In this document: positions 14 through 62,488 of the stretch, piece by piece
Position numbering within the stretch: the first letter of the stretch is position 1
How the letters are laid out: the number at the start of each line of letters is the position of its first letter
Position numbers and translations under genes: made by a program
Notes under the pieces: model-generated
What the model saw: only the letters and a program-made list of their open reading frames with translations
The model's database searches: none
What the model was told of the DNA's origin: nothing
Source of the DNA: an uncultured Candidatus Saccharibacteria bacterium
Lineage (GTDB): Bacteria > Patescibacteriota > Minisyncoccia > Sungbacterales > HO2-52-23
NCBI GenBank assembly: GCA_964585475.1
Contig: CAZPDF010000004.1
Span: 23,169-87,168, forward strand
Direction of reading: 5' to 3'
DNA length: 64,000 bases

Positions 14-115
14 ATTCATCCCGCTAAAGATAAGAGGAAAACTGTGTCGGCCAGAATATTGCCAATGGCCGGAAGCGAAGAACCCCATCCTTATTTAATC
101 TAAATCTCTAACGGG
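14..115 (-). repeat. degenerate copy of the TCTAACGGGA inverted-pair intergenic element
   Basis: CCCGCTAAAGA (20-30) and TCTCTAACGGG (104-115) in inverted orientation ~73 bp apart; downstream of GH13 gene stop. Confidence 0.3.
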
Positions 116-2965: not shown

Positions 2966-4307
2966 TTTTCTGCATTTCTATCAGCCGCCCACGCAAAAGC
3001 CGTTTTGGATACGAAAGATAACGGCCGAGGCCTACCGCCCCATCTTGGCAGGATTAAAAAAACAGGGCCGCACCAAAATCACACTCAACATCAACGGCGT
3101 CCTGCTTGAACATTTAGACCGCTGTGGCGAGCAAGACGTTATCGGCCTAATCAAGGACTTGCTGTCGTCCAGGCAAATCGAACTTACCGGAAGCGCCAAA
3201 TTCCATCCGCTGCTTCCTTTTTTGCCGGAGCAAGAAATAGTGCGGCAGATAAAATTAAACGAAGGCACTCTCCGAAAGTATCTCGGAGCTCTTTGGCGCC
3301 CTGAAGGATTCTTTCCTCCGGAGATGGGTTTGAACAAAAAAGTTGCGGAGATTGCCTGCAAATTGGGTTATAAATGGATAATAGCCGACGAACTTTCCAT
3401 GCCTTCCTCTTCCAGGCCCATAGATTATTCCCGGCTTTATAAAATCGCGGGGCTTGAGAATTTTTTTATTTACTTCAGGGAACGGCGCATGAGCTGGATG
3501 ATACTATCCGGCCAAGCAGGGACGGGAAAAATTCTGATCAAAAGCTTGGGGCCGCGTCTCAAGCGGCCTGAATATCTTCTTACCGCGATGGACGGCGAAA
3601 CTTTCGGGCACCATCGCCCCGGGTTGGAGCAGCTTCTCTTTGAAATGTACGAGGAAAAGGACATCCAAACTGTTTTCATTTCCGATCTGCCGGGCCTTTT
3701 TAAGAATGCCGCGGAAATAAATCCGGTTCCCTCCACTTGGGCGCTTATGGAAAAAGATTTGGAGCGCCAAAAGCCCTTTTCCAGATGGAAGGACGAAGAT
3801 AATAAAATTCACAAATTGCAATGGGAATTAACCGATTTAGCGTTGGAGGCCATTAAAAAAGCCGACGCCAAAAGCCCCTTCTTTGCGGAAGCGCGGCTGG
3901 CTCTTGACCGAGCCGTCCACTCCGACCAATATTGGTGGGCTTCGGCCCGGCCGTGGTGGTCAATGGAGATGATTGAAAAAGGCGCGAAAGAACTTTCTAG
4001 CGCGGTGCAAAAGATGCCGGGGGTTACCCAAAAGACCAAGGAGAAAGCGCGCGAGCTTTACAAATTAATAATATTTACGGCTTTCGACTGGCAGAGAGAG
4101 GGCGTGGTTGACGAACTTTCCAAAAAAGAGGATGAGGAAATAAGACAGCGGACCGATACCAGTTTTCCCAAGCTTCCTAAAAAAGAAATAGAAAAGATGA
4201 TTAAAAATTTGAGAGAGGAAATGAAACTGGTCGCAGAAAATCAGGAATTTGAGCGCGCCGCGCAAATACGCGACCGCATCGCCGAGCTTAGAAAATACGC
4301 GGAATAA
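2952..4307 (+). CDS. GH57 family glycoside hydrolase with C-terminal UVR (UvrB/C-like) domain
   Basis: 451 aa; N-terminal FLHFYQPP motif typical of GH57; C-terminus ENQEFERAAQIRDRIAELRKY matches the UVR domain; overlaps glgA stop by 14 nt. Confidence 0.7.
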   Translation: MYWANFLHFYQPPTQKPFWIRKITAEAYRPILAGLKKQGRTKITLNINGVLLEHLDRCGEQDVIGLIKDLLSSRQIELTGSAKFHPLLPFLPEQEIVRQIKLNEGTLRKYLGALWRPEGFFPPEMGLNKKVAEIACKLGYKWIIADELSMPSSSRPIDYSRLYKIAGLENFFIYFRERRMSWMILSGQAGTGKILIKSLGPRLKRPEYLLTAMDGETFGHHRPGLEQLLFEMYEEKDIQTVFISDLPGLFKNAAEINPVPSTWALMEKDLERQKPFSRWKDEDNKIHKLQWELTDLALEAIKKADAKSPFFAEARLALDRAVHSDQYWWASARPWWSMEMIEKGAKELSSAVQKMPGVTQKTKEKARELYKLIIFTAFDWQREGVVDELSKKEDEEIRQRTDTSFPKLPKKEIEKMIKNLREEMKLVAENQEFERAAQIRDRIAELRKYAE

Positions 4308-18220: not shown

Positions 18221-18281
18221 CTCCCCGGGTAGGGATCGAACCTACGACCGTCGCCTTAACAGGGCGCCGCTCTTCCGGGGC
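18221..18281 (-). pseudogene. tRNA-Asn(GTT)-like, 61 nt, lacks D-arm (probable tRNA pseudogene or fragment)
   Basis: Acceptor GCCCCGG/CCGGGGA, anticodon loop CTGTTAA, T-arm GGTTCGATCCC present; ~11 nt of D-stem/D-loop absent relative to the neighbouring tRNA-Asn. Confidence 0.45.
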
Positions 18282-21585: not shown

Positions 21586-21629
21586 ACAATGCTTATTCTT
21601 AACAATAGAGGCGGGGTTCGCTGCGAAAT

Positions 21630-21716
21630 CGGAAGGGGCGAGATTCGAACTCGCGGTACCATTTCTGGTACACGGTCTTTCCAGGACCGCCAGTTAAACC
21701 GCTCCTGCACCCTTCC
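21630..21716 (-). tRNA. tRNA-Ser (anticodon GGA), long variable arm
   Basis: 87 nt; acceptor GGAAGGG/CCCTTCC; anticodon stem CGGTC/GACCG with loop CTGGAAA; variable arm GTACC..GGTAC; T-arm GCGAGTTCGAATCTCGC. Confidence 0.8.
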
Positions 21717-21832
21717 ATTCTTTATATTTTTCGGTGATTCTCGGGTTGGATGAGCCAAATGTACGAGGATATCTTACCACAAAATCTTTGTTGTACAAAT
21801 AGATTCTCCTCCCTCTATCTGCAATATGCGGC

Positions 21833-23580: not shown

Positions 23581-23604
23581 AAATCACTAATCAAGCTCGA
23601 ATTT

Positions 23605-23673
23605 AATTCGCGAATGCCCGTAGTGAGCCTGTCGAACTATTCGCGAATAGGATTAGAGATTGATTCGCGATAC
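23605..23673. promoter_or_regulatory. three TTCGCGAA-type palindromes upstream of lemA
   Basis: AATTCGCGAAT at 23605-23615, TATTCGCGAATA at 23638-23649, GATTCGCGATAC at 23662-23673. Confidence 0.35.
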
Positions 23674-45686: not shown

Positions 45687-46073
45687 ATGCTATACGGTAT
45701 TGATAAAGTTACATTCCGGCACGGCTTTTGCGAGGGTCTAATGCTGGGGGCGGCTTTTGCTATACTGCTATTTTTAGGCGCAATATTTAAGCTGGGTGGG
45801 ATCGGAACGGACGTAAATTATGGAGCAACGCTCGGGGTTTACGTACTAATAGTGGGGGCGCTAGCGGCCGCCACAGTGAGAAATCCGACGAGCGGTATGG
45901 GGGTTACTTCCGGAGCAGGATTTCTAATGTCTCTCGCCGCTTTCGGAGGACTCTTATATGCACAGGGGGCCGGTCAAGCAATCCGGGTAAGTACAGGCAT
46001 ACTACTTACTACAATTCTTGGCATGTGCATCTTTGCCATAATTCAAATCATCAAGCAGAGGTACGATGCATAA
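45687..46073 (+). CDS. hypothetical membrane protein
   Basis: 128 aa, 3-4 predicted TM helices, Gly/Ala-rich. Confidence 0.4.
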   Translation: MLYGIDKVTFRHGFCEGLMLGAAFAILLFLGAIFKLGGIGTDVNYGATLGVYVLIVGALAAATVRNPTSGMGVTSGAGFLMSLAAFGGLLYAQGAGQAIRVSTGILLTTILGMCIFAIIQIIKQRYDA

Positions 46074-54176: not shown

Positions 54177-57100
54177 CTATTGATCGGAAGTTCTTCTCCA
54201 GAAAAATTCAATGATGCTCGCAAAAAGTCCTCTCGGCGTGGAGGATGTTTGCGACTGGGTACCGGAGGGCATAAATTGCTTGCATGCCAGATCCTGGTAA
54301 TTTTTAGTGCAGTAAGACGTGCATTCTTCAGGAGTTTTGCAACCGCCCGGTCCGCTGAAGTCCGTCTGCGATGAACCAGAGCATTTGCCCTTACTACCAG
54401 CATTAAAGATGGTCTGGACTTCGGACGCGTTTAACGCCCTGTTGTATACGGAGGCCTCATCAATCAAGCCGGAGAAAAATTCAGTGCTACTCCGCCATGA
54501 CCCGAGCGTAAACGGATCATCGCTCGTTGATTGTGTATTTGGAGCCTGCCGAAGGATAGTTCCCCGCGACTCGCCATCCACATATAATTTGACGTTGCCA
54601 GAACCATCTTTCGTGCCAACGGCATGATGCCAAACTCCCGAACTAACAGGCGCGGTAACGATGGTCTGACCTTCAGCTTTGGTAGTTTCTCCAACAGAAA
54701 ATTCCAATGTTCCATTACCTACCCTAAGCCAGTATCCCGATCCGGGGCCGCTTGAAGGATAGTTTGATTTTCGGATGATGTTATTTACGGATGATCCACC
54801 ACCCCAATGAAACCAGGCTTCCAAAGAAAATGGTCCGGTCCCGAAATTTAGATTCGCGGGATTTCCGATATTGACGCTACCCGCATTAAATTTGAGCGCA
54901 TTCCCTACTTTTCCGTCGTCAGCGATAGCGGCCCCACCAGAGAGAGTCCCGCTATTTCCATCAGCACTGTCTGACGCACTTGCGTCCCCCTTCCACCAAC
55001 TGACTAAACCTGAAGGCACCGGGGCGCAACTTTGAGTTGGAGGTGGTGGCGGAGGCGGCAGAATAGAGCACGCTGCAAATTCACAGTTTGGCGCTACACG
55101 ACCAACACTACTTCCGTTAGGACACTGTTTTAGATCTTCGGGGCAAGCAAGGCCGCCTCCGTAAGCAACGCAGGCAGGATCGGTGTAGTGGGTTTGACAA
55201 TAAGCTTTACATTCGGCTTGGCTTAGGCAACCGCCTGGGCCTGGTTCACCGCCAGTGCTTCCTCCTCCGCCGATATAGGAAGCACAAACTGGATCAGTGT
55301 AATGGGCGGTACAATAAGCTATACATTCTTCTTTATTCGTGCAGCCACCAGGGCCATTAAAGCCGCCTCCCCCGCCAGACGGAGGTTGGAAACCTCCAGG
55401 CAATCCACCTGCTCCGCCAGGCGGCTGAAAGCCCTTGCAAGCATCCGGATGTTCCTGACAATATGCTTTACATTCTTCTTGACTCTTGCATCCTCCAGGC
55501 CCGCCCGGGAATCCTCCACTTCCTCCTCCCGGAGGACCAAAACCTTCGCACTCTTCTTGATGGGCGGTGCAATACTCAATGCATTCTTCTGTATTTTTAC
55601 ATCCTCCCGGTCCGCTAAATCCCCCCTCGCCAAAATTACCTCCTCCACCTAACGATTGCTGTAGTTGCTCAAAACATCCTTCCAATGACTCAAAATTCAA
55701 ATCCTCGCCGAATTCCCCACTTTGGAGTTTCCGAAGCCCGTCTTCCCCAACCGCACCTTTAATGCACTCTACTGCTTCGGGTGGCAACTTGCTTAATTTT
55801 TGGCTTAAGTCGGCAGTCATCTGACCAAAGCAGGATTTCATTTTTCCTTCCATACCTCTGTCAAAAATCGGCTTGCCGTTCTTGATTTTCTCGAAATTTT
55901 CTTCGCCAAGAGCATCCTCAAGACATTGGACGACCTCGGGCGGCATTTTATCAAGATTTTCGCGGAACTGCTCCATTCCCTTGCTCATTCGTTCAAGGTC
56001 GGCTTCGCTCATTAGTCCATGTTCCTTGGCAAAATTGAAGCACTCCTCGGAATTTTCTTCACAATACGCCTCGCATTGCGTCTTGCTGTGGCATCCGCCC
56101 GGTCCTTTTCCTCCTACTTTTCTTACCATTTCGGCTTCTTCCGCCGTCATAACCCCGGCTTTTTCAGCAAAGGCAATGCACTCCTCTATATGATTATCTT
56201 CAGAACAGTAATTCTCGCATTGTTCTTTGGAGGTGCAGCCGCCCGGGCTCTCGCCCTGGCGCATCAAAACCATGAACTTCCTTGCCTCATCAATCTCTTC
56301 CTGAGGCATGAAGCCGCTTTTTTCGGCGAAATTCAAACACTCTTCCATGTGACTGGAATCACTGCAATAAATCTCGCAGGTGTTTCTGTCTTTACAACCG
56401 CCCGGGAACTGCGCGCCGGATTTTACCAATCCTTGAAATTTTCTAGCCTCGGCCAATTCGTCGCCGGAATAATAGCCGGTCTCCTCGGCAAAGGCGATGC
56501 ATTGATCAAGATGATCAATCGTATTGCAATAATTTTCGCAGGAAGACCAGGAGTTGCAGCCGCCGGGGCCATTTTTAATGTTCAGGAATTTATCAGCTGC
56601 TTCTTTGGATTCTTGTTCCGAAATCAAATTGTATTTTTTGGCAAACGCGAGACACTCTTTGGCGTGGTCAACATTATCACAATAGGAACGGCATTCGGCC
56701 TCGCTTTGACAATTTCCCAACTCGGGTACGGGGTATTGAATATCTTCTGCCGAAAGCGGTCCCTCTTTCTTCTCTTCTTGCGGAGGTGGAGGAGGCGGCG
56801 GAGGAGGCACTTCTTTTTTCACCGCGACACTTTTAGCTACTCCTTTAACAGGGGGGGAAATCTCAAGCTCGGTGGTATTGTTTTGACAATCAACAACATA
56901 GGCGGGCATCACCGGCGTAAAATCGGAGGGATCACGGAAGGATACGTTGTCGCTCACAAAAGATTTGCTGCAACCGCTCAACAACCCGCCGTAACGGAAT
57001 TGCTCTACCGGAGAAAGCGAAAACTCCTGAACGCCGTCGGGGTCTCTGATGGTTAAGGTAAATGCTTCGGAACCGGGGGGTTTTTTAAAATTTATTGAGG

Positions 57101-57209
57101 AATCATTGACGGCTGCCTCGACGTGGATGGTCGCCAAACTCAACAAAAAGGAAAGTACCAATATACTTGCGGCTAATAATTTCGTGGTTGTAATTGTCTT
57201 GGTATTCAT
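54177..57209 (-). CDS. secreted protein with ~8 tandem Cys-rich ~45-aa repeats, poly-Pro and Gly-rich linkers, and C-terminal LamG (concanavalin-A-like) domain
   Basis: 1010 aa; signal peptide; repeats GGC.S...CE.YC.......EC..FA...G; PPPPPPPPPQ; LamG-like region with LYVDG, VWHHAVG and LIDEASVYNRAL motifs. Confidence 0.65.
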   Translation of the reverse strand: MNTKTITTTKLLAASILVLSFLLSLATIHVEAAVNDSSINFKKPPGSEAFTLTIRDPDGVQEFSLSPVEQFRYGGLLSGCSKSFVSDNVSFRDPSDFTPVMPAYVVDCQNNTTELEISPPVKGVAKSVAVKKEVPPPPPPPPPQEEKKEGPLSAEDIQYPVPELGNCQSEAECRSYCDNVDHAKECLAFAKKYNLISEQESKEAADKFLNIKNGPGGCNSWSSCENYCNTIDHLDQCIAFAEETGYYSGDELAEARKFQGLVKSGAQFPGGCKDRNTCEIYCSDSSHMEECLNFAEKSGFMPQEEIDEARKFMVLMRQGESPGGCTSKEQCENYCSEDNHIEECIAFAEKAGVMTAEEAEMVRKVGGKGPGGCHSKTQCEAYCEENSEECFNFAKEHGLMSEADLERMSKGMEQFRENLDKMPPEVVQCLEDALGEENFEKIKNGKPIFDRGMEGKMKSCFGQMTADLSQKLSKLPPEAVECIKGAVGEDGLRKLQSGEFGEDLNFESLEGCFEQLQQSLGGGGNFGEGGFSGPGGCKNTEECIEYCTAHQEECEGFGPPGGGSGGFPGGPGGCKSQEECKAYCQEHPDACKGFQPPGGAGGLPGGFQPPSGGGGGFNGPGGCTNKEECIAYCTAHYTDPVCASYIGGGGSTGGEPGPGGCLSQAECKAYCQTHYTDPACVAYGGGLACPEDLKQCPNGSSVGRVAPNCEFAACSILPPPPPPPTQSCAPVPSGLVSWWKGDASASDSADGNSGTLSGGAAIADDGKVGNALKFNAGSVNIGNPANLNFGTGPFSLEAWFHWGGGSSVNNIIRKSNYPSSGPGSGYWLRVGNGTLEFSVGETTKAEGQTIVTAPVSSGVWHHAVGTKDGSGNVKLYVDGESRGTILRQAPNTQSTSDDPFTLGSWRSSTEFFSGLIDEASVYNRALNASEVQTIFNAGSKGKCSGSSQTDFSGPGGCKTPEECTSYCTKNYQDLACKQFMPSGTQSQTSSTPRGLFASIIEFFWRRTSDQ

Positions 57210-57309
57210 CCCGTTAGAAATTTAGGGCTAATTTTAATACTTATTTCGTCCAGCAAATAATCACTCATCGTACGCTCCATTAAAGACGGTGCCCCATCTC
57301 TAACGGGAT
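57207..57309 (-). repeat. TCTAACGGGA inverted-pair intergenic element
   Basis: CCCGTTAGAAA 57210-57220 abuts ATG 57209 of the LamG-protein gene; TCTCTAACGGG 57297-57307 lies 10 nt past the stop of the upstream gene; 75-bp spacer. Confidence 0.5.
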
Positions 57310-57317
57310 TCACGCCT

Positions 57318-57569
57318 TTATCGTAACGGATTTATGTATTTAAATGGATTGGCCCGATCAAGCGGATTTACTTCCGGAACTTTTTCTCCGAGATTGGTTT
57401 GGATTTCCGGAACCGATTTGCTTAGAGCTTCGGCCGTTCCAACCGCGCTAGCCGGCTCGATAGGTTCCTGGACTTTTTTTTGCGACCAATACCAAAAACC
57501 TCCGGCAATCAGTGCCGCCAGTATAATAGTAACAACAACAAAAATGGGTTTTGATTTTGAATCATTCAT
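57318..57569 (-). CDS. small membrane-anchored hypothetical protein
   Basis: 83 aa; one N-terminal TM. Confidence 0.35.
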   Translation of the reverse strand: MNDSKSKPIFVVVTIILAALIAGGFWYWSQKKVQEPIEPASAVGTAEALSKSVPEIQTNLGEKVPEVNPLDRANPFKYINPLR

Positions 57570-57716
57570 AAACCTAATTGATATTATACCGCAACATATC
57601 GGTCTTGATAAACAGGCTTATACACAGATATTCGTTCTGGCGAGTCCATAATAATGCTCCTGATTTTCCAGATGTATTCAAGGATTAACTTAAGACTTAA
57701 GAAATTTTAACTATAC

Positions 57717-57744
57717 TTGATTTTTCTCTTTCCCGATATAGAAT
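57717..57744 (+). promoter_or_regulatory. candidate sigma70-like promoter (TTGATT-16-TAGAAT) for the aldolase-family gene
   Basis: -35-like TTGATT 57717-57722; -10-like TAGAAT 57739-57744; AGGAGG SD before ATG 57775. Confidence 0.35.
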
Positions 57745-57774
57745 GCACTTGAGTCCTAACTTTAGGAGGCCTCG

Positions 57775-58452
57775 ATGTCGCTGGCGGATGATCTTTGCAA
57801 AATAGGAAAATCGCTTGCCGAAAGAAATTTCGTCCACTATCTCCTCGGCACCATCAGCGCCAGATCCTCCGAAAATCCTCACACCTATCTCGTAAAGCCG
57901 GCCGAATGCCTTTACGAACTGGCGAATCCTAGCGACTTCGCTCTGGTAAATGAGGACGGAGACCCGGTTGACGGCACCGACCGCCGGCCCTCGTTAAATT
58001 TCCTAGTCCACCTTGCCTGTTACCGGGCCAGGCCGGATATCGGCGGGGTCGTACACGCTCATCCGGAAAAGACAACCGCTTTAATCTCTCAGGATCACCC
58101 TGCTTTTAACGGCATACCCAGTAGGATCCCGCTTCTTACGCAGGAAGGCGTATGGATGGTCAAAAATTGGCATATTCCTATTGTGGAAGACCTCGACCCG
58201 AAAGAACTTGCCGAAGCGGTTTCCGAAAAAATTCTTGAGGCCAATGTCGTGGCCATACGAAACCACGGCATCATAGCCGTCGGAAAAAGCATATGGGAAG
58301 CATACGGCGCCGCGCTGGTTGCAGAAAGCGAGGCGGTGATGCTCGGTTCGATTATCAGCATGGGCGGAAAGCCGCTCATCCGAAACCCGGAAACCGGAGA
58401 AACTGATCTTTGCAAAATGCCGTCGCGGACGTTTTCCAAAAAATTCACATAA
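57775..58452 (+). CDS. class II aldolase/adducin-family protein
   Basis: 225 aa; VVHAHPE metal-binding motif and fold-typical glycine patterns; strong SD. Confidence 0.7.
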   Translation: MSLADDLCKIGKSLAERNFVHYLLGTISARSSENPHTYLVKPAECLYELANPSDFALVNEDGDPVDGTDRRPSLNFLVHLACYRARPDIGGVVHAHPEKTTALISQDHPAFNGIPSRIPLLTQEGVWMVKNWHIPIVEDLDPKELAEAVSEKILEANVVAIRNHGIIAVGKSIWEAYGAALVAESEAVMLGSIISMGGKPLIRNPETGETDLCKMPSRTFSKKFT

Positions 58453-58490
58453 TATCCCCGCCTTTCACGGCGGGTTTTAAATATCCCTTC

Positions 58491-59264
58491 CTAGGAAAAT
58501 TTTGCTTTGGGATCTATCCCACGGATAGGTCCTCCGAGTTTCCGAACTGCTTTTTTCACTCTTATCATACAGCCCTCCAAATCCGAGACAATATCCTTTT
58601 CTGACAAACGAATAACCCTCCAACCGCACCGCCGAAGAACAGCGTTTTTTATTTTATCTTTCTGCCTCTTACGCAAACCGGAATGGGCCTTTTTATTATC
58701 ACACTCAATAGCTATCAATCCTTGCCGGCAAAATACGGCAAAATCTATACAATATCGTTTCTGGCCGCATGCGACGTGGTATTGGGCGCGCACTCCGATG
58801 CCGGTGAGCTTCAAACCATCCTCTATCATCTGCTCGGTCGGAACGACGTTATAAAGCTGTAAAATATTTCTGGATTTCAACAAACGATTTAGGGTGGTAA
58901 AACCGAAGGAAATGCGGCGCGGTATTATATTTCTGACGGGCCGAGGCAGTTTCTTGACCCTACCGACACGAAGCCGGAAATAGTAATCGCGGGCCCTCGG
59001 ATGATTTAACTCATCCGGTAGCAACTCGCTCCTTTTAATAGTTTGCTGATTTAAAACACGGGCATAATATAGAATACGCCTTCCCCGACGGCCGAACCTG
59101 GCGGGCTGATAGAAAGCAAGGTAATGGAATGGCCGCGCCGGCGCATGCGCCAAGGGAATTCTATACCACTTTTTGGTTAAAAGGATGCCAAGATCGCGCT
59201 TGTTTTTGAGCACGCCGACTAAAACGATTTTATCTATTTTATCTTTAGCATAATTCTTGACCAT
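58491..59264 (-). CDS. DUF559 (Vsr-like endonuclease fold) domain protein with uncharacterised N-terminal region
   Basis: 257 aa; C-terminal YCIDFAV....LIAIECDNKKAH.........LRRCGWRVIRL matches the DUF559 pattern. Confidence 0.55.
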   Translation of the reverse strand: MVKNYAKDKIDKIVLVGVLKNKRDLGILLTKKWYRIPLAHAPARPFHYLAFYQPARFGRRGRRILYYARVLNQQTIKRSELLPDELNHPRARDYYFRLRVGRVKKLPRPVRNIIPRRISFGFTTLNRLLKSRNILQLYNVVPTEQMIEDGLKLTGIGVRAQYHVACGQKRYCIDFAVFCRQGLIAIECDNKKAHSGLRKRQKDKIKNAVLRRCGWRVIRLSEKDIVSDLEGCMIRVKKAVRKLGGPIRGIDPKAKFS

Positions 59265-59311
59265 ATTTTGGGCCTACGGCTAGCCCCGGAAAAGTCCATG
59301 GCTAAATTTTT

Positions 59312-59426
59312 ATCCCGTTAGAGGCAGATCGCGATCACGATAGCGCAATCTTTGTGTATTACTCCATAAATTCGACCTTGTATATTTTATTTATCCTGCA
59401 AGAAGCGATCGCGGCCTCTAACGGGA
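59312..59426 (-). repeat. TCTAACGGGA inverted-pair element with extended arms
   Basis: ATCCCGTTAGAGGCAGATCGCGATC (59312-59336) and GATCGCGGCCTCTAACGGGAT (59406-59426); ~20-bp imperfect inverted repeat, ~70-bp AT-rich spacer; ~50 nt upstream of the DUF559 gene start. Confidence 0.5.
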
Positions 59427-59469
59427 TTTATCCGGTGTGAGCGAACATAAGTTTTTTAAACTATTCTCC

Positions 59470-59487
59470 AATTCGCGCGAATTGGCC
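59470..59487. promoter_or_regulatory. perfect 18-bp palindrome CCAATTCGCGCGAATTGG
   Basis: Self-complementary; no adjacent T-tract in the orientation required for a terminator; TTCGCG..CGAA core resembles the 23.6 kb palindromes. Confidence 0.3.
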
Positions 59488-59607
59488 AAAAAAATATAAC
59501 TTTGAAATAGTGTTTATAAACTACCCTGCTACCCTGACGCATCAGGCGTTATGACGCATCACCCGTCTCGGTCGGGTGCTCAAAGAGTCTGGCCCCCTTG
59601 GTATCGA

Positions 59608-61419
59608 TTACCCTTTCCGACGGGCCCTTGAGCGCTCAACTTCGGTAAGATACTGCTTTCGCAAACGAACGCTTTGCGGAGTAATCTCAAGGTATTCATC
59701 CTCGGATATAATTTCAAGTCCGCGCTCGATCGTAAGCACAAATGGCGGAGTAAGATTGATCGCTTCGTCCGAACCGGAAGCACGCATATTCGTAAGCTGT
59801 TTACCTTTCGTCGGATTAACCCTCATTTCTTCTCCTTTTGACGTGTTACCGATCACCATTCCTTCATAAACTTCAATTTGCGAGCCTATGTAGAGCGTGC
59901 CGCGCTCCTGAAGCCCCCATAACGCATATCCCATGGCAACACCCTTTGCCATCGAGATCATTGAACCGACAGCGCGTTTATGAATTTCTCCGGCATACGG
60001 CTTAAAGCCGAGAACACGTGAGGCAAAAATACCCTCGCCTTTGGTATCAATCACAAATTGATTGCGATATCCAAGAATGCCTCTCGTCGGCCCCTCAAAA
60101 GACATCCGTACGGCCTCGCCTTTGTGAGAAATATTGTTTAAAACAAAGCCGCGGGACCCAATCCGCTTAATTATAACACCCTGGTATTCGCCGGGTATAT
60201 CAATAATTACCTCTTCAAACGGTTCGAGTTTCTTGCCATTTTCTTCACGAATTATGACTTGGGGTTGCGAAACTTGAAGCTCAAAACCGGCCCGCCGCAT
60301 ATTTTCAAGAAGGATTGCAATATGAAGCTCCCCTCTGCCCAACACCCGGAAGCTTTCCGAAGAACTAAAATCAATGCGAAGACCCACGTTTACTTCAAGT
60401 TCACGTTCAAGGTATTCCCGGAGTTGCCGAGAAGTCACGTACTTTCCTTCCCGCCCGGCAAATGGAGAATTATTCACCAAAAAATTCAGCGCAATAGTCG
60501 GCTCATCAACCGCGATTGCGGGCAAGGGTTTGGCATCCCGGTCAGTCGTAACCGTCTCACCAATATCAATATCGGGAAGTCCTGCCACAAGAATTATGTC
60601 GCCGGCACCCGCTTCAGCGGATTCTATTTTTTCGAGCCCCTTGAAAGTAAAAATCTTTGTAATTTTTCCGGAGCGAGTTTCACCATTCTGTTTTTTTACG
60701 AATACATCGGCCCCCGTCTTGGCGATACCTTCATATATTCTTCCAACCGCAAGCCGTCCCAAAAAATTATCATACCCCAAGTTAAACGGCTGGAGCTTTA
60801 AGGGTTTCTGGGCCAGCTCTTCAGATGACGCAGAAGGAATATGCGCGAGAATGGTATCGAGAAGCGGAGACAAATCATGTGATTCATCGGTGAGCTTTAA
60901 AGTCGCAATTCCTGCCCGGCCGTTAGCATAGACCACCGGAAAATCCGCTTGCTCATCATCGGCCCCGAGTTCGAGGAATAGTGCAAGCACTTCTTCTTCG
61001 CATCGTGCGGGGTCAGCGGCGGGCTTGTCTATTTTATTTATTATCACGATCGGCCTCAGCCCAAGTTCAAGAGATTTTTTTAAAACAAACCGGGTCTGGG
61101 GCATCGGGCCTTCTTGGGCGTCCACGACCAGAAGCACCGAGTCTATTGAACGAAGCACTCGCTCAACCTCGGATCCAAAATCGGCATGTCCCGGGGTATC
61201 GACAATATTAATCTTCGTCGAGACTCGCCCCGAGTTTATCGGGGGATAAAAAATCGCCGCATTTTTTGAATAAATAGTAATCCCGCGCTCAAGTTCCAGC
61301 GCGTTTGAATCCATTGAAACACCCTCTTTGGCAACACCGGTTTGCCGTAGCATCGCGTCAGTCAAAGTGGTTTTCCCATGATCCACATGGGCAATGATTG
61401 CAATGTTTCTTATTTCCAT
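59608..61419 (-). CDS. typA: translational GTPase TypA/BipA
   Basis: 603 aa; N-terminus MEIRNIAIIAHVDHGKTTLTD; EF-G-like domain order. Confidence 0.9.
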   Translation of the reverse strand: MEIRNIAIIAHVDHGKTTLTDAMLRQTGVAKEGVSMDSNALELERGITIYSKNAAIFYPPINSGRVSTKINIVDTPGHADFGSEVERVLRSIDSVLLVVDAQEGPMPQTRFVLKKSLELGLRPIVIINKIDKPAADPARCEEEVLALFLELGADDEQADFPVVYANGRAGIATLKLTDESHDLSPLLDTILAHIPSASSEELAQKPLKLQPFNLGYDNFLGRLAVGRIYEGIAKTGADVFVKKQNGETRSGKITKIFTFKGLEKIESAEAGAGDIILVAGLPDIDIGETVTTDRDAKPLPAIAVDEPTIALNFLVNNSPFAGREGKYVTSRQLREYLERELEVNVGLRIDFSSSESFRVLGRGELHIAILLENMRRAGFELQVSQPQVIIREENGKKLEPFEEVIIDIPGEYQGVIIKRIGSRGFVLNNISHKGEAVRMSFEGPTRGILGYRNQFVIDTKGEGIFASRVLGFKPYAGEIHKRAVGSMISMAKGVAMGYALWGLQERGTLYIGSQIEVYEGMVIGNTSKGEEMRVNPTKGKQLTNMRASGSDEAINLTPPFVLTIERGLEIISEDEYLEITPQSVRLRKQYLTEVERSRARRKG

Positions 61420-61518
61420 CCCGTTAGAAGTATACTCTTACTTACATCCCATAATAGAAGAATAAACCGATTTATTACCAAACCCATTAGAAAACTTCTA
61501 CTTAAACTTCTAACGGGG
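61417..61518 (-). repeat. TCTAACGGGA inverted-pair intergenic element
   Basis: CCCGTTAGAAG 61420-61430 abuts typA ATG 61419; CTTCTAACGGGG 61507-61518 abuts obg stop codon 61520-61522; 76-bp spacer. Confidence 0.5.
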
Positions 61519-61519
61519 T

Positions 61520-62488
61520 TCATGCGTATTTTTCTTTTATTAATTTGTTTAGAATTTTCTTTATTTTTACTATGCTGTCAAAATCATGGATTGAGAATAC
61601 ACCGGCTGGCACTTTCTTTTTTTTAAGTGCAGAGAGTTTCTTTTTCAGTTCAGCCGGCGGAACCATGTCGCTTTTTCCCAAAAATACATATTCCTTTTTT
61701 TTGAGAAGAGCTTTGTTATACATTCCGAGCTCTTGTCTGATGGTTTTATAATCTTTATGCGGATCCGGGGATTCGGCGGAAATAATATGAAAGAGAACTT
61801 TTGTCCGCTCAATATGGCGCAAAAACTTTATGCCGAGCCCCTTCCCGCCGGAAGCTCCTTCTACCAGGCCAGGAATATCAGCAAGGACAAGCTCGTAATA
61901 CACCCCTAAATTCGGCTCAAGCGTTGTGAATAAATAATTCGCCACTTTGCTTTTGGCGCGCGTCAATTCATTAAGAAGGCTCGATTTCCCAACATTAGGC
62001 AGACCTATCAGGCCGACATCGGCTATCAGCTTTAATTCAAGACGAAAAGTAAAGCTCTCACCCTGAGCTCCATATCTAAATTGTTTCGGCCTGGTATTCG
62101 TGGAGGAACGGAAATGAAAATTTCCCTTGCCTCCTCTTCCGCCCTTGGCCGCAAAAATGCGCTCGCCGATTGATACAATTTCCGTATCAACGCCGGTAGT
62201 AAGATTATGAATGATGGTTCCGACGGGCACAAGCAATATAAGGTCTTCCGCATCAGATCCGTCGCAAAATTGCCCCCGGCCGTCCTGGCCGTTTTTTGCG
62301 GGAAATTCTTTTTTGAAACGGTATGTTCGTAAAATGCCAAGGTCCGAAGAACTCTCAAAATAAACGCTTCCGCCGCTTCCCCCGGATCCTCCCGCCGGAC
62401 CGAATTGATTGAGATTCTTATTAAACGAAGTAGCACCTCTTCCTCCGTTTCCCGCCAACACCCTGATTGTAATGTCGTCTACAAACAT
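61520..62488 (-). CDS. obg: GTPase Obg/CgtA (short form without C-terminal extension)
   Basis: 322 aa; Gly-rich Obg fold (AGNGGRGATSF...GGSGGSGGS); G1 GLPNVGKSSLL. Confidence 0.85.
   Translation of the reverse strand: MFVDDITIRVLAGNGGRGATSFNKNLNQFGPAGGSGGSGGSVYFESSSDLGILRTYRFKKEFPAKNGQDGRGQFCDGSDAEDLILLVPVGTIIHNLTTGVDTEIVSIGERIFAAKGGRGGKGNFHFRSSTNTRPKQFRYGAQGESFTFRLELKLIADVGLIGLPNVGKSSLLNELTRAKSKVANYLFTTLEPNLGVYYELVLADIPGLVEGASGGKGLGIKFLRHIERTKVLFHIISAESPDPHKDYKTIRQELGMYNKALLKKKEYVFLGKSDMVPPAELKKKLSALKKKKVPAGVFSIHDFDSIVKIKKILNKLIKEKYA

Follow-up and report, generated by a model that had tools for sequence, protein, structure and literature searches.

The inverted TCTAACGGG pair around positions 57207-57309 of a 64,000-nucleotide stretch of DNA from an uncultured candidate-phylum bacterium (the window, meaning here the whole stretch that was analysed) represents the two termini of a small mobile element of DNA that forms a hairpin, and it is not a regulatory stem designed by the host. 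Taken as a whole, the best explanation, which we consider likely, is that this interval and its three siblings in the window are gene-less copies of a family of palindromic mobile elements.

Inverted pairs in the window

The 9-mer TCTAACGGG occurs seven times on the two strands of the window versus 0.45 expected, a number reached in none of 100 shuffles. Three of the inverted pairs formed by its copies are exact, and a fourth is degenerate (Table 1). The recurrent two-arm architecture described in the original prediction was thus borne out. Of the frequency check proposed there, the exact 9-mer gave a clear excess within the window, whereas the 10-mer with one mismatch allowed (8 occurrences versus 3.55 expected) was not significant by itself. 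On the minus strand, the interval 57204-57320 reads TAA (the stop codon of an 83-aa ORF), aggc, GTGAAT, CCCGTTAGA, 80 nt, TCTAACGGG and ATGAAT, and the ATG of the last is the start of a 1010-aa Laminin_G_3 ORF, in agreement with the earlier observation that the 3' arm adjoins a start codon. The distance between the stop codon and the motif, previously given as 10 nt, had to be corrected to 6 nt (counted to GAAUCCCG). The same arrangement is repeated at 59314-59425 and 61420-61517, with a degenerate version at 20-115, and the three exact copies are grouped within 4.3 kb, adjoining a defence and mobile island. One more exact arm is located directly beyond the window start (L208 10098).

Individual copies show additional features. 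The short frame of element 1 is separated by 4 nt from the stop of the 83-aa gene, element 2 contains a second inner stem (GCCGCGATCGC / GCGATCGCGATCTGC), and element 3 has an inner arm copy at 61483-61491 that is able to pair as a mini-hairpin with the arm at 61509. RNA folds of the window elements were predicted at -30 to -45 kcal/mol (z = -2.4 to -4.6), and the RNA stem at 57207-57309 takes in the AU of the start codon. When the spacers of the window elements were compared among themselves, no similarity could be detected, as had been claimed. The remark that no known family could be recognised in the motif also held, in that a search of the window with Rfam covariance models gave nothing at the gathering threshold, and 57000-61700 gave nothing at E <= 1; a literature search on the motif itself returned just primers and shRNAs. 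Two other contexts were considered and rejected. A cyanobacterial HIP1 context disagrees with the mere three occurrences of GCGATCGC in the window and with TypA, which places the window in the Patescibacteria, and an invertible promoter (inverton), for which the spacers are too short and the neighbours are housekeeping genes, was abandoned after the target-site duplications and the nuclease link had been found.

Table 1. Hairpin elements of the window, their flanking target copies and their short frames
Feature	Position	Strand	Remarks
Element 1, gene-less hairpin element	57208..57309	-	stem reaches AT...AT
Element 1, core arms	CCCGTTAGA 57299-57307; TCTAACGGG 57210-57218	-	
Element 1, upstream target copy GTGAAT	57308..57313	-	begins the 35-codon short frame
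Element 1, downstream target copy ATGAAT	57204..57209	-	first two codons of the 1010-aa Laminin_G_3 gene, start codon included
Element 1, short frame, 35 codons, GTG...TGA	57206..57313	-	TGA overlaps the Laminin_G_3 ATG (AUGA)
Element 2	59314..59425	-	112 nt between arm ends; not placed at a start codon
Element 2, upstream flank copy ATAAAT	59426..59431	-	
Element 2, downstream flank copy ATAAAA	59308..59313	-	
Element 3, obg-typA interval	61420..61517	-	
Element 3, upstream flank copy ATGAAC	61518..61523	-	TGA is the obg stop; ATG is the short-frame start
Element 3, downstream flank copy ATGGAA	61414..61419	-	typA start
Element 3, short frame, 37 codons	61410..61523	-	TAA two codons inside typA
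Element 4, degenerate	20..115	-	exact arm 107-115; decayed arm TCTTTAGCGGG 20-30
Element 4, flanks	ATGAGT 116-121; ATGAAT 14-19	-	

Distribution and hairpin structure of the family

In a scan for the exact pattern, with each species represented by one genome, the arms CCCGTTAGA...TCTAACGGG were detected in at least 120 loci, and Patescibacteria, Omnitrophota, Planctomycetota, Desulfobacterota, Nitrospirae, Elusimicrobia and Spirochaetia are represented among the matches listed. The 9-mer is identical across phylum boundaries. All pattern matches were also found on the opposite strand with a shift of 1 nt, implying an inverted repeat longer than the searched pattern; the arms of the family can be written as Y-CCCGTTAGA ... 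TCTAACGGG-R, with a stem of 12-14 bp. Stem positions 10-12 are variable in sequence and yet covary: of 137 elements, 126, 130 and 119 have a Watson-Crick pair at these positions, versus approximately 55 expected under independence. The spacing of the arms varies from 18 to approximately 120 nt, and they may also bracket a tRNA gene. Carriage by phages was rejected, as just 4 pattern matches and one GIY-YIG relative could be found in IMG/VR. The locus L017 was also dismissed as a transposase-bearing case, its 325-nt inverted repeats flanking a surface protein gene and no transposase.

Target site and evidence of insertion

Two independent insertions at one site were identified by comparing filled sites (L161 1075-1200 and L163 1124-1221) with the matching empty sites (L178, L191, L170 and L181), which contain a single TTCAC or TTTAC. 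The target-site duplication is therefore 4-5 bp (TTCAC or TTTAC) and falls within the target R-T-N-N-A-Y, which is part of a palindromic sequence of roughly T-R-T-N-N-A-Y-A whose central 4-5 bp are duplicated. Further, a gene-less element is nested within a GIY-YIG gene in L006, and relatives of typA with 82-85% identity lack the element and also start with ATGGAA. Among elements with related interiors, the two central target bases are shared in eight of nine comparisons.

The inner T-N-N-A is repeated directly in the two flanks, each of its positions being 72-85% identical. The flanks could be divided into the classes (RR,RR), (YY,YY) and (YY,RR), with 51, 43 and 21 members, and no member was found for (RR,YY), implying that the tag is always 5' of the hairpin on at least one strand. 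Inverted rather than direct flanks are present in 21 gene-less copies and in half of the gene-bearing units, which a plain target-site-duplication model fails to predict.

A GIY-YIG nuclease gene between the same arms

The gene-bearing unit of the family is approximately 277 nt long, with the arms placed around an 86-aa single-domain GIY-YIG gene, and the ~100-nt window copies are gene-less relatives of this unit. GIY-YIG ORFs were found between the arms in L096, L110 and L006. Among 80 metagenomic relatives of the 86-aa protein, the 5' arm is located no more than 45 nt upstream of the ATG in 78, and the 3' arm covers the last codons in all 80. The gene ends in CTA ACG GGR (L-T-G), which is itself the 3' arm, and the stop codon lies mostly in the flank. 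The protein matches PF01541 with E = 8.5e-19 over residues 1-67, its catalytic-type residues are conserved, and most gene-bearing copies retain an intact 86-aa ORF, with a median pairwise identity of 71%; both its nuclease activity and the transposition chemistry are putative. The closest proteins in tblastn are those of the YazA/UPF0213 group. As for a place in the Ssn clade (CDD cd10448), a comparison with SsnA of N. gonorrhoeae by hhalign gave a probability of 96.5% and 34% identity over 64 core columns only, and the similarity to UPF0213 is equal to or above that to SsnA (1zg2, E = 1.4e-7; YazA, about 44% identical).

The relationship between the gene-less copies and the unit is confined to their ends. 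Only the outer 14-22 nt can be aligned, by which the idea that the gene-less copies were left behind when the gene was deleted in place was rejected, and the 3' end of the GIY-YIG gene is retained, as its CCT motif was found in 23 of 92 gene-less copies versus 3 of 92 at the mirrored position. The interiors are unrelated to one another, both within the window and across loci, as well as to the gene body, and thus these copies did not arise simply by recent deletion. The window and its flanks of about 14 kb (approximately 78 kb of the source genome) contain no cognate GIY-YIG gene. When partner families were sought by neighbourhood, using all-against-all clustering of 2333 ORFs from the 120 loci listed, only the small GIY-YIG group was enriched, and no consistent long element with the same arms was found besides the GIY-YIG unit.

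Start codons and short frames

Since ATGRRY matches the target R-T-N-N-A-Y, about half of the copies are placed precisely at the start codon of a host gene, which is thereby duplicated. In total, 65 elements adjoin the start of a long ORF, and 54 have a start codon in the upstream target copy. The fusion between arm and start codon is therefore attributed to the choice of target together with the survival of harmless insertions. The absence of a Shine-Dalgarno (SD) sequence, reported in the original prediction, was confirmed but is ordinary, in that a crude test on genomes of this kind detected SD-like motifs at just 16% of the control starts. Such motifs are no commoner upstream of the duplicated start than at control starts, which leaves the idea of a bridged SD without support. 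Just outside the window, the gene caller seems to take the upstream duplicated start of a DEAD-box helicase gene.

The frame that begins at the upstream start codon is open through the element in 24 of the 54 cases (44%), whereas each of the other two sense frames is open in 6, and shuffled sequences averaged 5.9 and never exceeded 13. Both start-codon cases of the window (elements 1 and 3) have a short frame that is open through the element. Element lengths that leave a remainder of 1, 2 or 0 on division by 3 were counted 27, 17 and 10 times, respectively, showing that lengths that would fuse the short frame to the host are under-represented. The short frames stop either at a UAA within the 3' arm or at AUGA, which overlaps the true start, and this placement suggests translational coupling of the upstream frame to the host gene. 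On the other hand, only 44% of the start-codon copies have an open short frame, and coupling is thus not the sole route to tolerance. Part of the translational role originally proposed was retained, as read-through frames far exceed the approximately 6 expected by chance, whereas a designed initiation signal was not, because many copies (such as that at 59314-59425) are away from start codons. The other roles put forward there, a site of RNase III processing and a pair of operators for a regulator, gained no support.

Comparison with known systems

The closest known system is Ssn, in which small GIY-YIG nucleases are paired with dispersed hairpin repeats, termed NTS/SRM (Chenal et al. 2025, PMC11893778), that are equivalent to CGTC-tagged REPs (Di Nocera et al. 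2013, PMC3733652). Both systems have an IS-like gene architecture, with a single-domain GIY-YIG gene of about 90 aa bracketed by inverted repeats and many copies that are also gene-less, and both have stems opening with A-T (or A-C) and continuing with CCCG beside a short directional tag. A further mark of the Ssn type is site-specific cleavage restricted to single-stranded DNA, on the 5' side of the hairpin. In line with the Ssn type, the protein is a single-domain GIY-YIG protein, its 86 aa being compared with about 90-100 aa for that type, and 78 of 80 genes are bracketed while gene-less copies are dispersed, although the flanks here are halves of one stem. In contrast, a complete 20-50-nt hairpin is present on each side of the gene in Ssn, whereas the two arms of one long stem of 12-14 bp surround the gene here, and the 'loop' varies between a few nt and an entire gene or a tRNA. 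In place of CGTC, the tag is R-T-Y-Y-A-Y, the C-terminus of the protein differs in addition to its low identity to SsnA, a target-site duplication could be demonstrated, and the host organisms belong to CPR, Omnitrophota and comparable lineages. The SRM pattern HGTCWY..YYVSBRH..WNVSBRG..RNCYNB, which matched 5 NTS copies in 1 kb of Neisseria as a control, matched no window element (its single match in the window is an unrelated site at 45928), and two mini-hairpin sequences that were tried also failed. Considering these differences in motif, in architecture and probably in protein family, the element is treated as a variant distinct from Ssn/NTS.

Other systems share some features with the family. 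REP/REPIN sequences and their RAYTs are also short, palindromic, non-autonomous and dispersed elements linked to a small gene bracketed by the same repeats, but their partner is an HUH tyrosine transposase (Y1) instead of a GIY-YIG nuclease, REPs have a GTAG tag and no target-site duplication, and REP families are species-specific, whereas the 9-mer here is constant across phyla. Correia elements (NEMIS, the MITEs of Neisseria) resemble the window copies in their size (~100-150 bp), terminal inverted repeats, short target duplication, insertion beside genes, co-transcription and mRNA hairpin; however, their copies share the whole sequence and duplicate TA, whereas here only the ends are common, and the gene-bearing relative encodes a GIY-YIG nuclease and not a DDE transposase. 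With regard to MITEs in general, terminal inverted repeats, small size, a lack of coding capacity for mobility proteins and a 4-5-bp target-site duplication were all found, together with a gene-bearing element with the same ends (the ~277-nt GIY-YIG unit, whose autonomy is putative), and near-identity along the whole length was not, the interiors being unrelated within the window and across loci. Rickettsia palindromic elements (RPEs), some families of which are CGTC-tagged REPs, are likewise palindromic, mobile and tolerated in or at coding sequences, but they are in frame and translated within the host protein, whereas host-fusing lengths are under-represented here. At the level of translation, AUGA coupling and the hairpin-bridged split RBS of phage T4 gene 38 provide parallels, as a stable hairpin separates the original initiation region from the true start and the upstream frame ends on or beside the start codon; the difference is that the arrangement here arises when a mobile element inserts and thereby duplicates the start codon, with a function suggested by frame statistics only.

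Alternative explanations

The comparison with Neisseria raises the possibility that the hairpins are sites of a host-domesticated, ssDNA-specific nuclease, like NTS/SsnA, that marks or limits incoming or recombining ssDNA near particular genes, their spread being ancient and their placement at start codons incidental. A similar logic (a small single-domain GIY-YIG gene bracketed by dispersed, gene-clustered hairpin repeats), a similar grammar (a 4-nt tag and a stem starting A-T or A-C, then CCCG), the constant position of the tag 5' of the hairpin on at least one strand and the clustering of three copies beside the defence and mobile island would all agree with such a role. We nevertheless regard it as unlikely, because insertion events, as opposed to static sites, are evident from the comparison of filled with empty sites (including the target-site duplication) and from a nested copy, the protein is as close to UPF0213 proteins as to the SsnA core, and the published SRM pattern recognizes the Neisseria control and none of these elements; natural transformation is not known in these organisms. 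A stem evolved by the host for regulation or processing of RNA at intercistronic junctions (translational control or RNase III cleavage), as put forward in the original prediction, would account for the stable folds, the covarying positions, the inclusion of the start-codon AU in the stem and the enrichment of open short frames. It is hard to reconcile with arms that occur in both orientations and away from start codons, enclose a nuclease or tRNA gene, are accompanied by target-site duplications, are missing at the orthologous typA start of relatives, keep the 9-mer unchanged over phylum boundaries and lack any Rfam match, and its probability is judged to be very low.

Mobile elements of better-known types have also been considered. 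An ordinary MITE, originating from a DDE-type insertion sequence with the same terminal inverted repeats and mobilised by it, would agree with the repeats at the ends, the short duplication of the target and the size of close to 100 bp. There is, however, only a slight chance that this is the answer, given that no recurrent transposase family is found near the elements of the 120 loci listed, that the GIY-YIG unit is the sole long element seen with these arms, that a covarying inner stem and unrelated interiors are unlike copies of a master MITE, and that the flank classes are asymmetric. The least probable candidate is a REP/REPIN type moved by a Y1 transposase (RAYT or IS200-like), or an integron attC-like site for a tyrosine recombinase. 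Integron core sites are GTTRRRY/RYYYAAC, which GTTAGA/TCTAAC resembles, and a Y1_Tnp gene is present ~8 kb past the right end of the window, but it is not bracketed by the arms, the GTAG tag is absent, and REP and IS200 elements lack a target-site duplication, whereas one is seen here. The attC reading in particular was rejected based on the order of the boxes (GTTAGA...TCTAAC, the reverse of attC RYYYAAC...GTTRRRY) and the lack of an integrase nearby, none recurring near the elements of the 120 loci listed.

Proposed mechanism and implications

The preferred explanation remains a mobile palindromic element, and it reverses the earlier statement that the pair is 'not a MITE or REP copy', considering its target-site duplication, its occurrence in many phyla and the identity of its arms with the terminal repeats of a GIY-YIG gene. 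By analogy with SsnA and the NTS hairpin, the arms would pair as an ssDNA hairpin or cruciform, giving a structure that may be recognised by the GIY-YIG nuclease, and the adjacent 4-nt tag would direct cutting. Gene-less copies would be mobilised in trans, and insertions within genes would be lost, so that start-codon copies remain, in which the duplication restores the start codon of the host gene. Ribosomes initiating from the original ribosome-binding site could then read through the short frame and melt the stem that hides the true AUG; after stopping at a UAA 5 nt ahead of the AUG, or at AUGA, they could re-initiate, and host expression would survive. The element is thus probably made harmless at start codons by the translated short frame. 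Counting against the explanation are the lack of a cognate GIY-YIG gene in approximately 78 kb of the source genome, the unrelated interiors of the gene-less copies and the inverted flanks of part of the copies. In addition, GIY-YIG enzymes act by hydrolysis of DNA, and strand transfer is not known for them, so that the joining step is without a known catalyst.

A broader and more speculative proposal, which may be correct but is held with considerable doubt, is that the family represents an undescribed IS-like class with the smallest gene-bearing transposable unit known (~277 bp). The 86-aa GIY-YIG protein would cut R^TNNAY at the junctions and at the target, the resulting 4-nt cohesive ends would allow excision and re-insertion by ligation, and the overhang would pass on both orientation and target core, while gene-less derivatives would colonise start codons across CPR and other uncultured phyla, tolerated via a coupled short frame that unwinds the hairpin.

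If the explanation is true, a second family of small GIY-YIG nucleases with its own hairpin repeats, distinct in sequence from Ssn, would exist. The target-site duplication, empty sites and nested copies provide direct genomic evidence of insertion, which is absent from the Ssn/NTS report (PMC11893778). The family would also bear on how DNA may be propagated by a hydrolytic nuclease of less than 90 residues. Such nuclease-hairpin pairs may be candidate tools for sequence- or structure-specific DNA cutting. For genome annotation, gene callers may choose the upstream duplicated start at such sites. Moreover, the family would account for a recurrent puzzling feature of CPR gene starts, and would offer a natural, testable case of a mobile element neutralised through translational coupling.

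Elements in the window

The feature at 57207-57309 is a gene-less member of a palindromic mobile element family associated with a GIY-YIG nuclease. The original prediction had read it as a conserved intercistronic stem; the recurrent inverted-arm architecture at a gene start, with unrelated spacers between the arms, was borne out by sequence reading, and the junction has the described arms and start codon (the ATG of the downstream ATGAAT starts the 1010-aa Laminin_G_3 gene, minus strand), with the quoted distance from the stop codon slightly off. An exact 9-mer of the arm occurs 7 times in the window against 0.45 expected, a count reached in 0 of 100 shuffles. As RNA, the window elements give good folds (z -2.4 to -4.6), and no family was matched in an Rfam search with them. 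The window's TypA is 82% identical to that of Ca. Sungbacteria, and its genome (from ENA ERZ27284378) belongs to Patescibacteria.

Features of the window and of other loci (L-numbers, from genome and metagenome collections; L206 and L208 adjoin the window's right and left ends)
Sequence	Position	Strand	Feature
Window	20-115	-	Decayed copy of the two-arm architecture
Window	18221-18281		Weak second tRNA, reported by Rfam, not called by ARAGORN
Window	21629-21717		tRNA-Ser, ARAGORN call, absent from Rfam gathering list
Window	23583-23671		Inverted repeats of ATTCGCGAAT, related to CCAATTCGCGCGAATTGG
Window	57206-57313		35-codon frame; begins 4 nt past 83-aa gene stop; its TGA overlaps LamG ATG
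Window	57204-57320	-	83-aa ORF / Laminin_G_3 junction: TAA (83-aa ORF stop) - aggc - GTGAAT - CCCGTTAGA - 80 nt - TCTAACGGG - ATGAAT
Window	58491-59264	-	REase_MTES_1575/DUF559 protein gene, directly downstream of the element at 59314
Window	59314-59425	-	Same two-arm architecture
Window	59468-59485		Perfect 18-nt palindrome CCAATTCGCGCGAATTGG, between typA stop and the element at 59314
Window	61410-61523		37-codon frame; its ATG overlaps obg stop; ends two codons into typA
Window	61420-61517	-	Same two-arm architecture, obg to typA
Window	61483-61517	+	Inner arm copy, CCCATTAGA, and the arm at 61509
L002	4385-4669		Different small GIY-YIG gene adjoining tRNA-Ala; 22-nt duplication of tRNA 5' end at each side
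L006	3774-4159		GIY-YIG unit split by gene-less element (3877-3982)
L017	2046-2369, 4832-5155		325-nt inverted repeats, one element copy in each, around 686-aa Big_5 surface protein gene
L031	7674-7895		Tandem elements, exactly one 6-nt flank (ATTCAT) between; junction TCTAACGGG-ATTCAT-CCCGTTAGA
L064	4972-5059		tRNA-Thr between two arms
L090	432-538		tRNA-Val between two arms
L161	1075-1200		Gene-less element in ORF6N-like gene
L163	1124-1221		Gene-less element, same position of ORF6N-like gene
L206	1-8489		Defence and mobile island: LexA/S24-DNA methylase fusion, Vsr, Y1_Tnp (IS200-like), OLD-family AAA/TOPRIM protein, RNase H-like protein, PDDEXK, HicB
L208	9926-10106		Further exact arm, 172 nt from left arm of the decayed copy (compound element)
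L208	10539-10607		Arm pair 42 nt inside called start of DEAD-box helicase gene

The inner arm copy can pair with the arm at 61509, so that the obg-typA element holds a nested mini-hairpin. For the DEAD-box helicase gene, the caller may have taken a duplicated upstream start.

Spread and covariation of the arms

A pattern scan of one genome per species (CCCGTTAGA-N70-100-TCTAACGGGR) yielded at least 120 loci, where the chance expectation for 18-mer pairs in a collection of that size could be a couple of hundred. The matches listed come mostly from Patescibacteria, and also from Omnitrophota, Planctomycetota, Desulfobacterota, Nitrospirae, Elusimicrobia, Spirochaetia and others; all of them also match on the opposite strand at a 1-base offset, indicating an inverted repeat longer than the searched pattern. 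The stem covaries: its next three positions are variable, yet of 137 elements 126, 130 and 119 keep a Watson-Crick pair there, against about 55 expected if the sides were independent. Mini-hairpins have the closest arms, 18 nt apart, and the widest spacing is about 120 nt; element lengths cluster at 92/93, 100, 103/104 and 115-118. In L064 and L090, complete tRNA genes fill the exact space between the arms, with the acceptor stem stacking on the arm helix. The segment between the inverted repeats of L017 could be duplicated or invertible.

The GIY-YIG nuclease unit

The arms are the ends of a nuclease gene. When all ORFs from the 120 loci listed were clustered, no recurrent transposase or recombinase was found, and one small cluster was distinct: its ORFs, about 86 aa long, are arm-bracketed themselves (L096, L110, L006) and encode GIY-YIG catalytic domains (PF01541, E = 8.5e-19). 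Among 80 relatives taken from at least 460 in a metagenome scan with their alignment, 78 have CCCGTTAGA no more than 45 nt ahead of the ATG, and TCTAACGGG lies over the last codons (...K-R-F-L-S-L-T-G) in all 80; of 74 distinct contexts, 56 have a stop codon that the flank provides. The unit measures 274-282 nt from arm to arm, and its ORFs are mostly intact, with a median pairwise identity of 71%. The 3' end of the gene persists in gene-less copies (CCT motif in 23/92 versus 3/92 at the mirrored position), and their alignment to the unit profile is confined to the outer 14-22 nt; they thus have the ends of the unit but not its body, and their interiors are unrelated. The nuclease gene was absent from the approximately 78 kb of this genome searched. 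The GIY-YIG gene of L002 represents another type of GIY-YIG insertion, distinct from this unit.

Mobility and target sites

Two gene-less elements with unlike interiors occupy one position of an ORF6N-like gene (L161 and L163), the filled sites reading TTTAC-element-G-TTTAC and TTCAC-element-G-TTCAC, and in four homologous loci the site is empty and TTCAC or TTTAC is present once; this is a 4-5-bp target-site duplication. Taking the nested element out of the L006 unit restores the reading frame of its GIY-YIG gene; at this locus the flanks are inverted (GTTTAC ... GTAAAC), not direct. Relatives with 82-85% identical TypA have the start ATGGAA and no element upstream. When related elements at different loci were compared, 8 of 9 comparisons, which are not independent, showed an identical target core. 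In different metagenomes (L146, L161, L199 and others), homologous ORF6N-like genes also carry GIY-YIG units close to their 3' end, at no fewer than three distinct positions, and in the 5' part of this gene family one site is occupied repeatedly by gene-less elements.

The flanks of 133 elements follow N-T-N-N-A-Y on the left and R-T-N-N-A-N on the right, the inner T-N-N-A being a direct repeat (72-85% identity per position) and the Y/R and A/T pairs lengthening the stem. With the next positions added, the target consensus is the palindrome T-R-T-N-N-A-Y-A, whose two central bases are mostly both purines, or both pyrimidines when the other strand is read. The flank classes number 51 (RR,RR), 43 (YY,YY), 21 (YY,RR) and 0 (RR,YY), so each element reads TCTAACGGG-R-T-R-R-A at one end or both; a plain target-site duplication would not give the inverted-flank class.

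Start codons and short frames

The elements prefer start codons, and ATG-RR-Y agrees with the target consensus. A long-ORF start is abutted by 65 elements, and in 54 of these the upstream flank copy is also a start codon. The frame set by this copy is open through the interior in 24 of the 54, compared with 6 and 6 for the other two sense frames and a shuffle mean of 5.9 (maximum 13, 1000 runs); elements away from starts showed no frame bias. Length determines where the short frame ends: either the 3' arm supplies a TAA, 5 nt ahead of the AUG, or the frame closes at a TGA that overlaps the AUG. Lengths modulo 3 of 1, 2 and 0 number 27, 17 and 10, those that would fuse the frame to the host protein being rarest. 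Both start-codon copies of the window have open short frames. Few gene starts in these genomes have an SD-like motif, and the region upstream of the duplicated start is no richer in them. These statistics suggest that open short frames provide translational coupling, which would rescue the host gene.

Known systems and proposed mechanism

The closest system is Ssn/NTS, whose nucleases are single-domain GIY-YIG proteins of 94 aa; they cut single-stranded DNA on the 5' side of a hairpin repeat, and this repeat brackets the Ssn gene and is also dispersed in the genome (PMC11893778). The Ssn-paired repeats are the CGTC-tagged REPs, which a 2013 study described as having no transposase (PMC3733652). 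Both families have a tag and a stem starting A-T, then CCCG. However, with N. gonorrhoeae SsnA and its NTS flanks as the control sequence, the present protein was only 34% identical over the catalytic core, the SsnA C-terminus differs, and the published SRM pattern matched the Neisseria control and none of these elements. Unlike in Ssn/NTS, the present gene sits inside one long split stem, and target-site duplication is demonstrated. The nearest proteins in PDB and tblastn searches were UPF0213/YazA proteins. Within the literature collection searched, no description of the arm motif or of a prokaryotic GIY-YIG element with target duplication was found; one study counts GIY-YIG genes among those that Patescibacteria exchange with other groundwater bacteria (PMC12455944).

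In the proposed mechanism, the nuclease would recognise the folded arms and cut in the tag, the DNA ends would then be joined, gene-less copies would move in trans, and the short frame may couple translation to that of the host gene.
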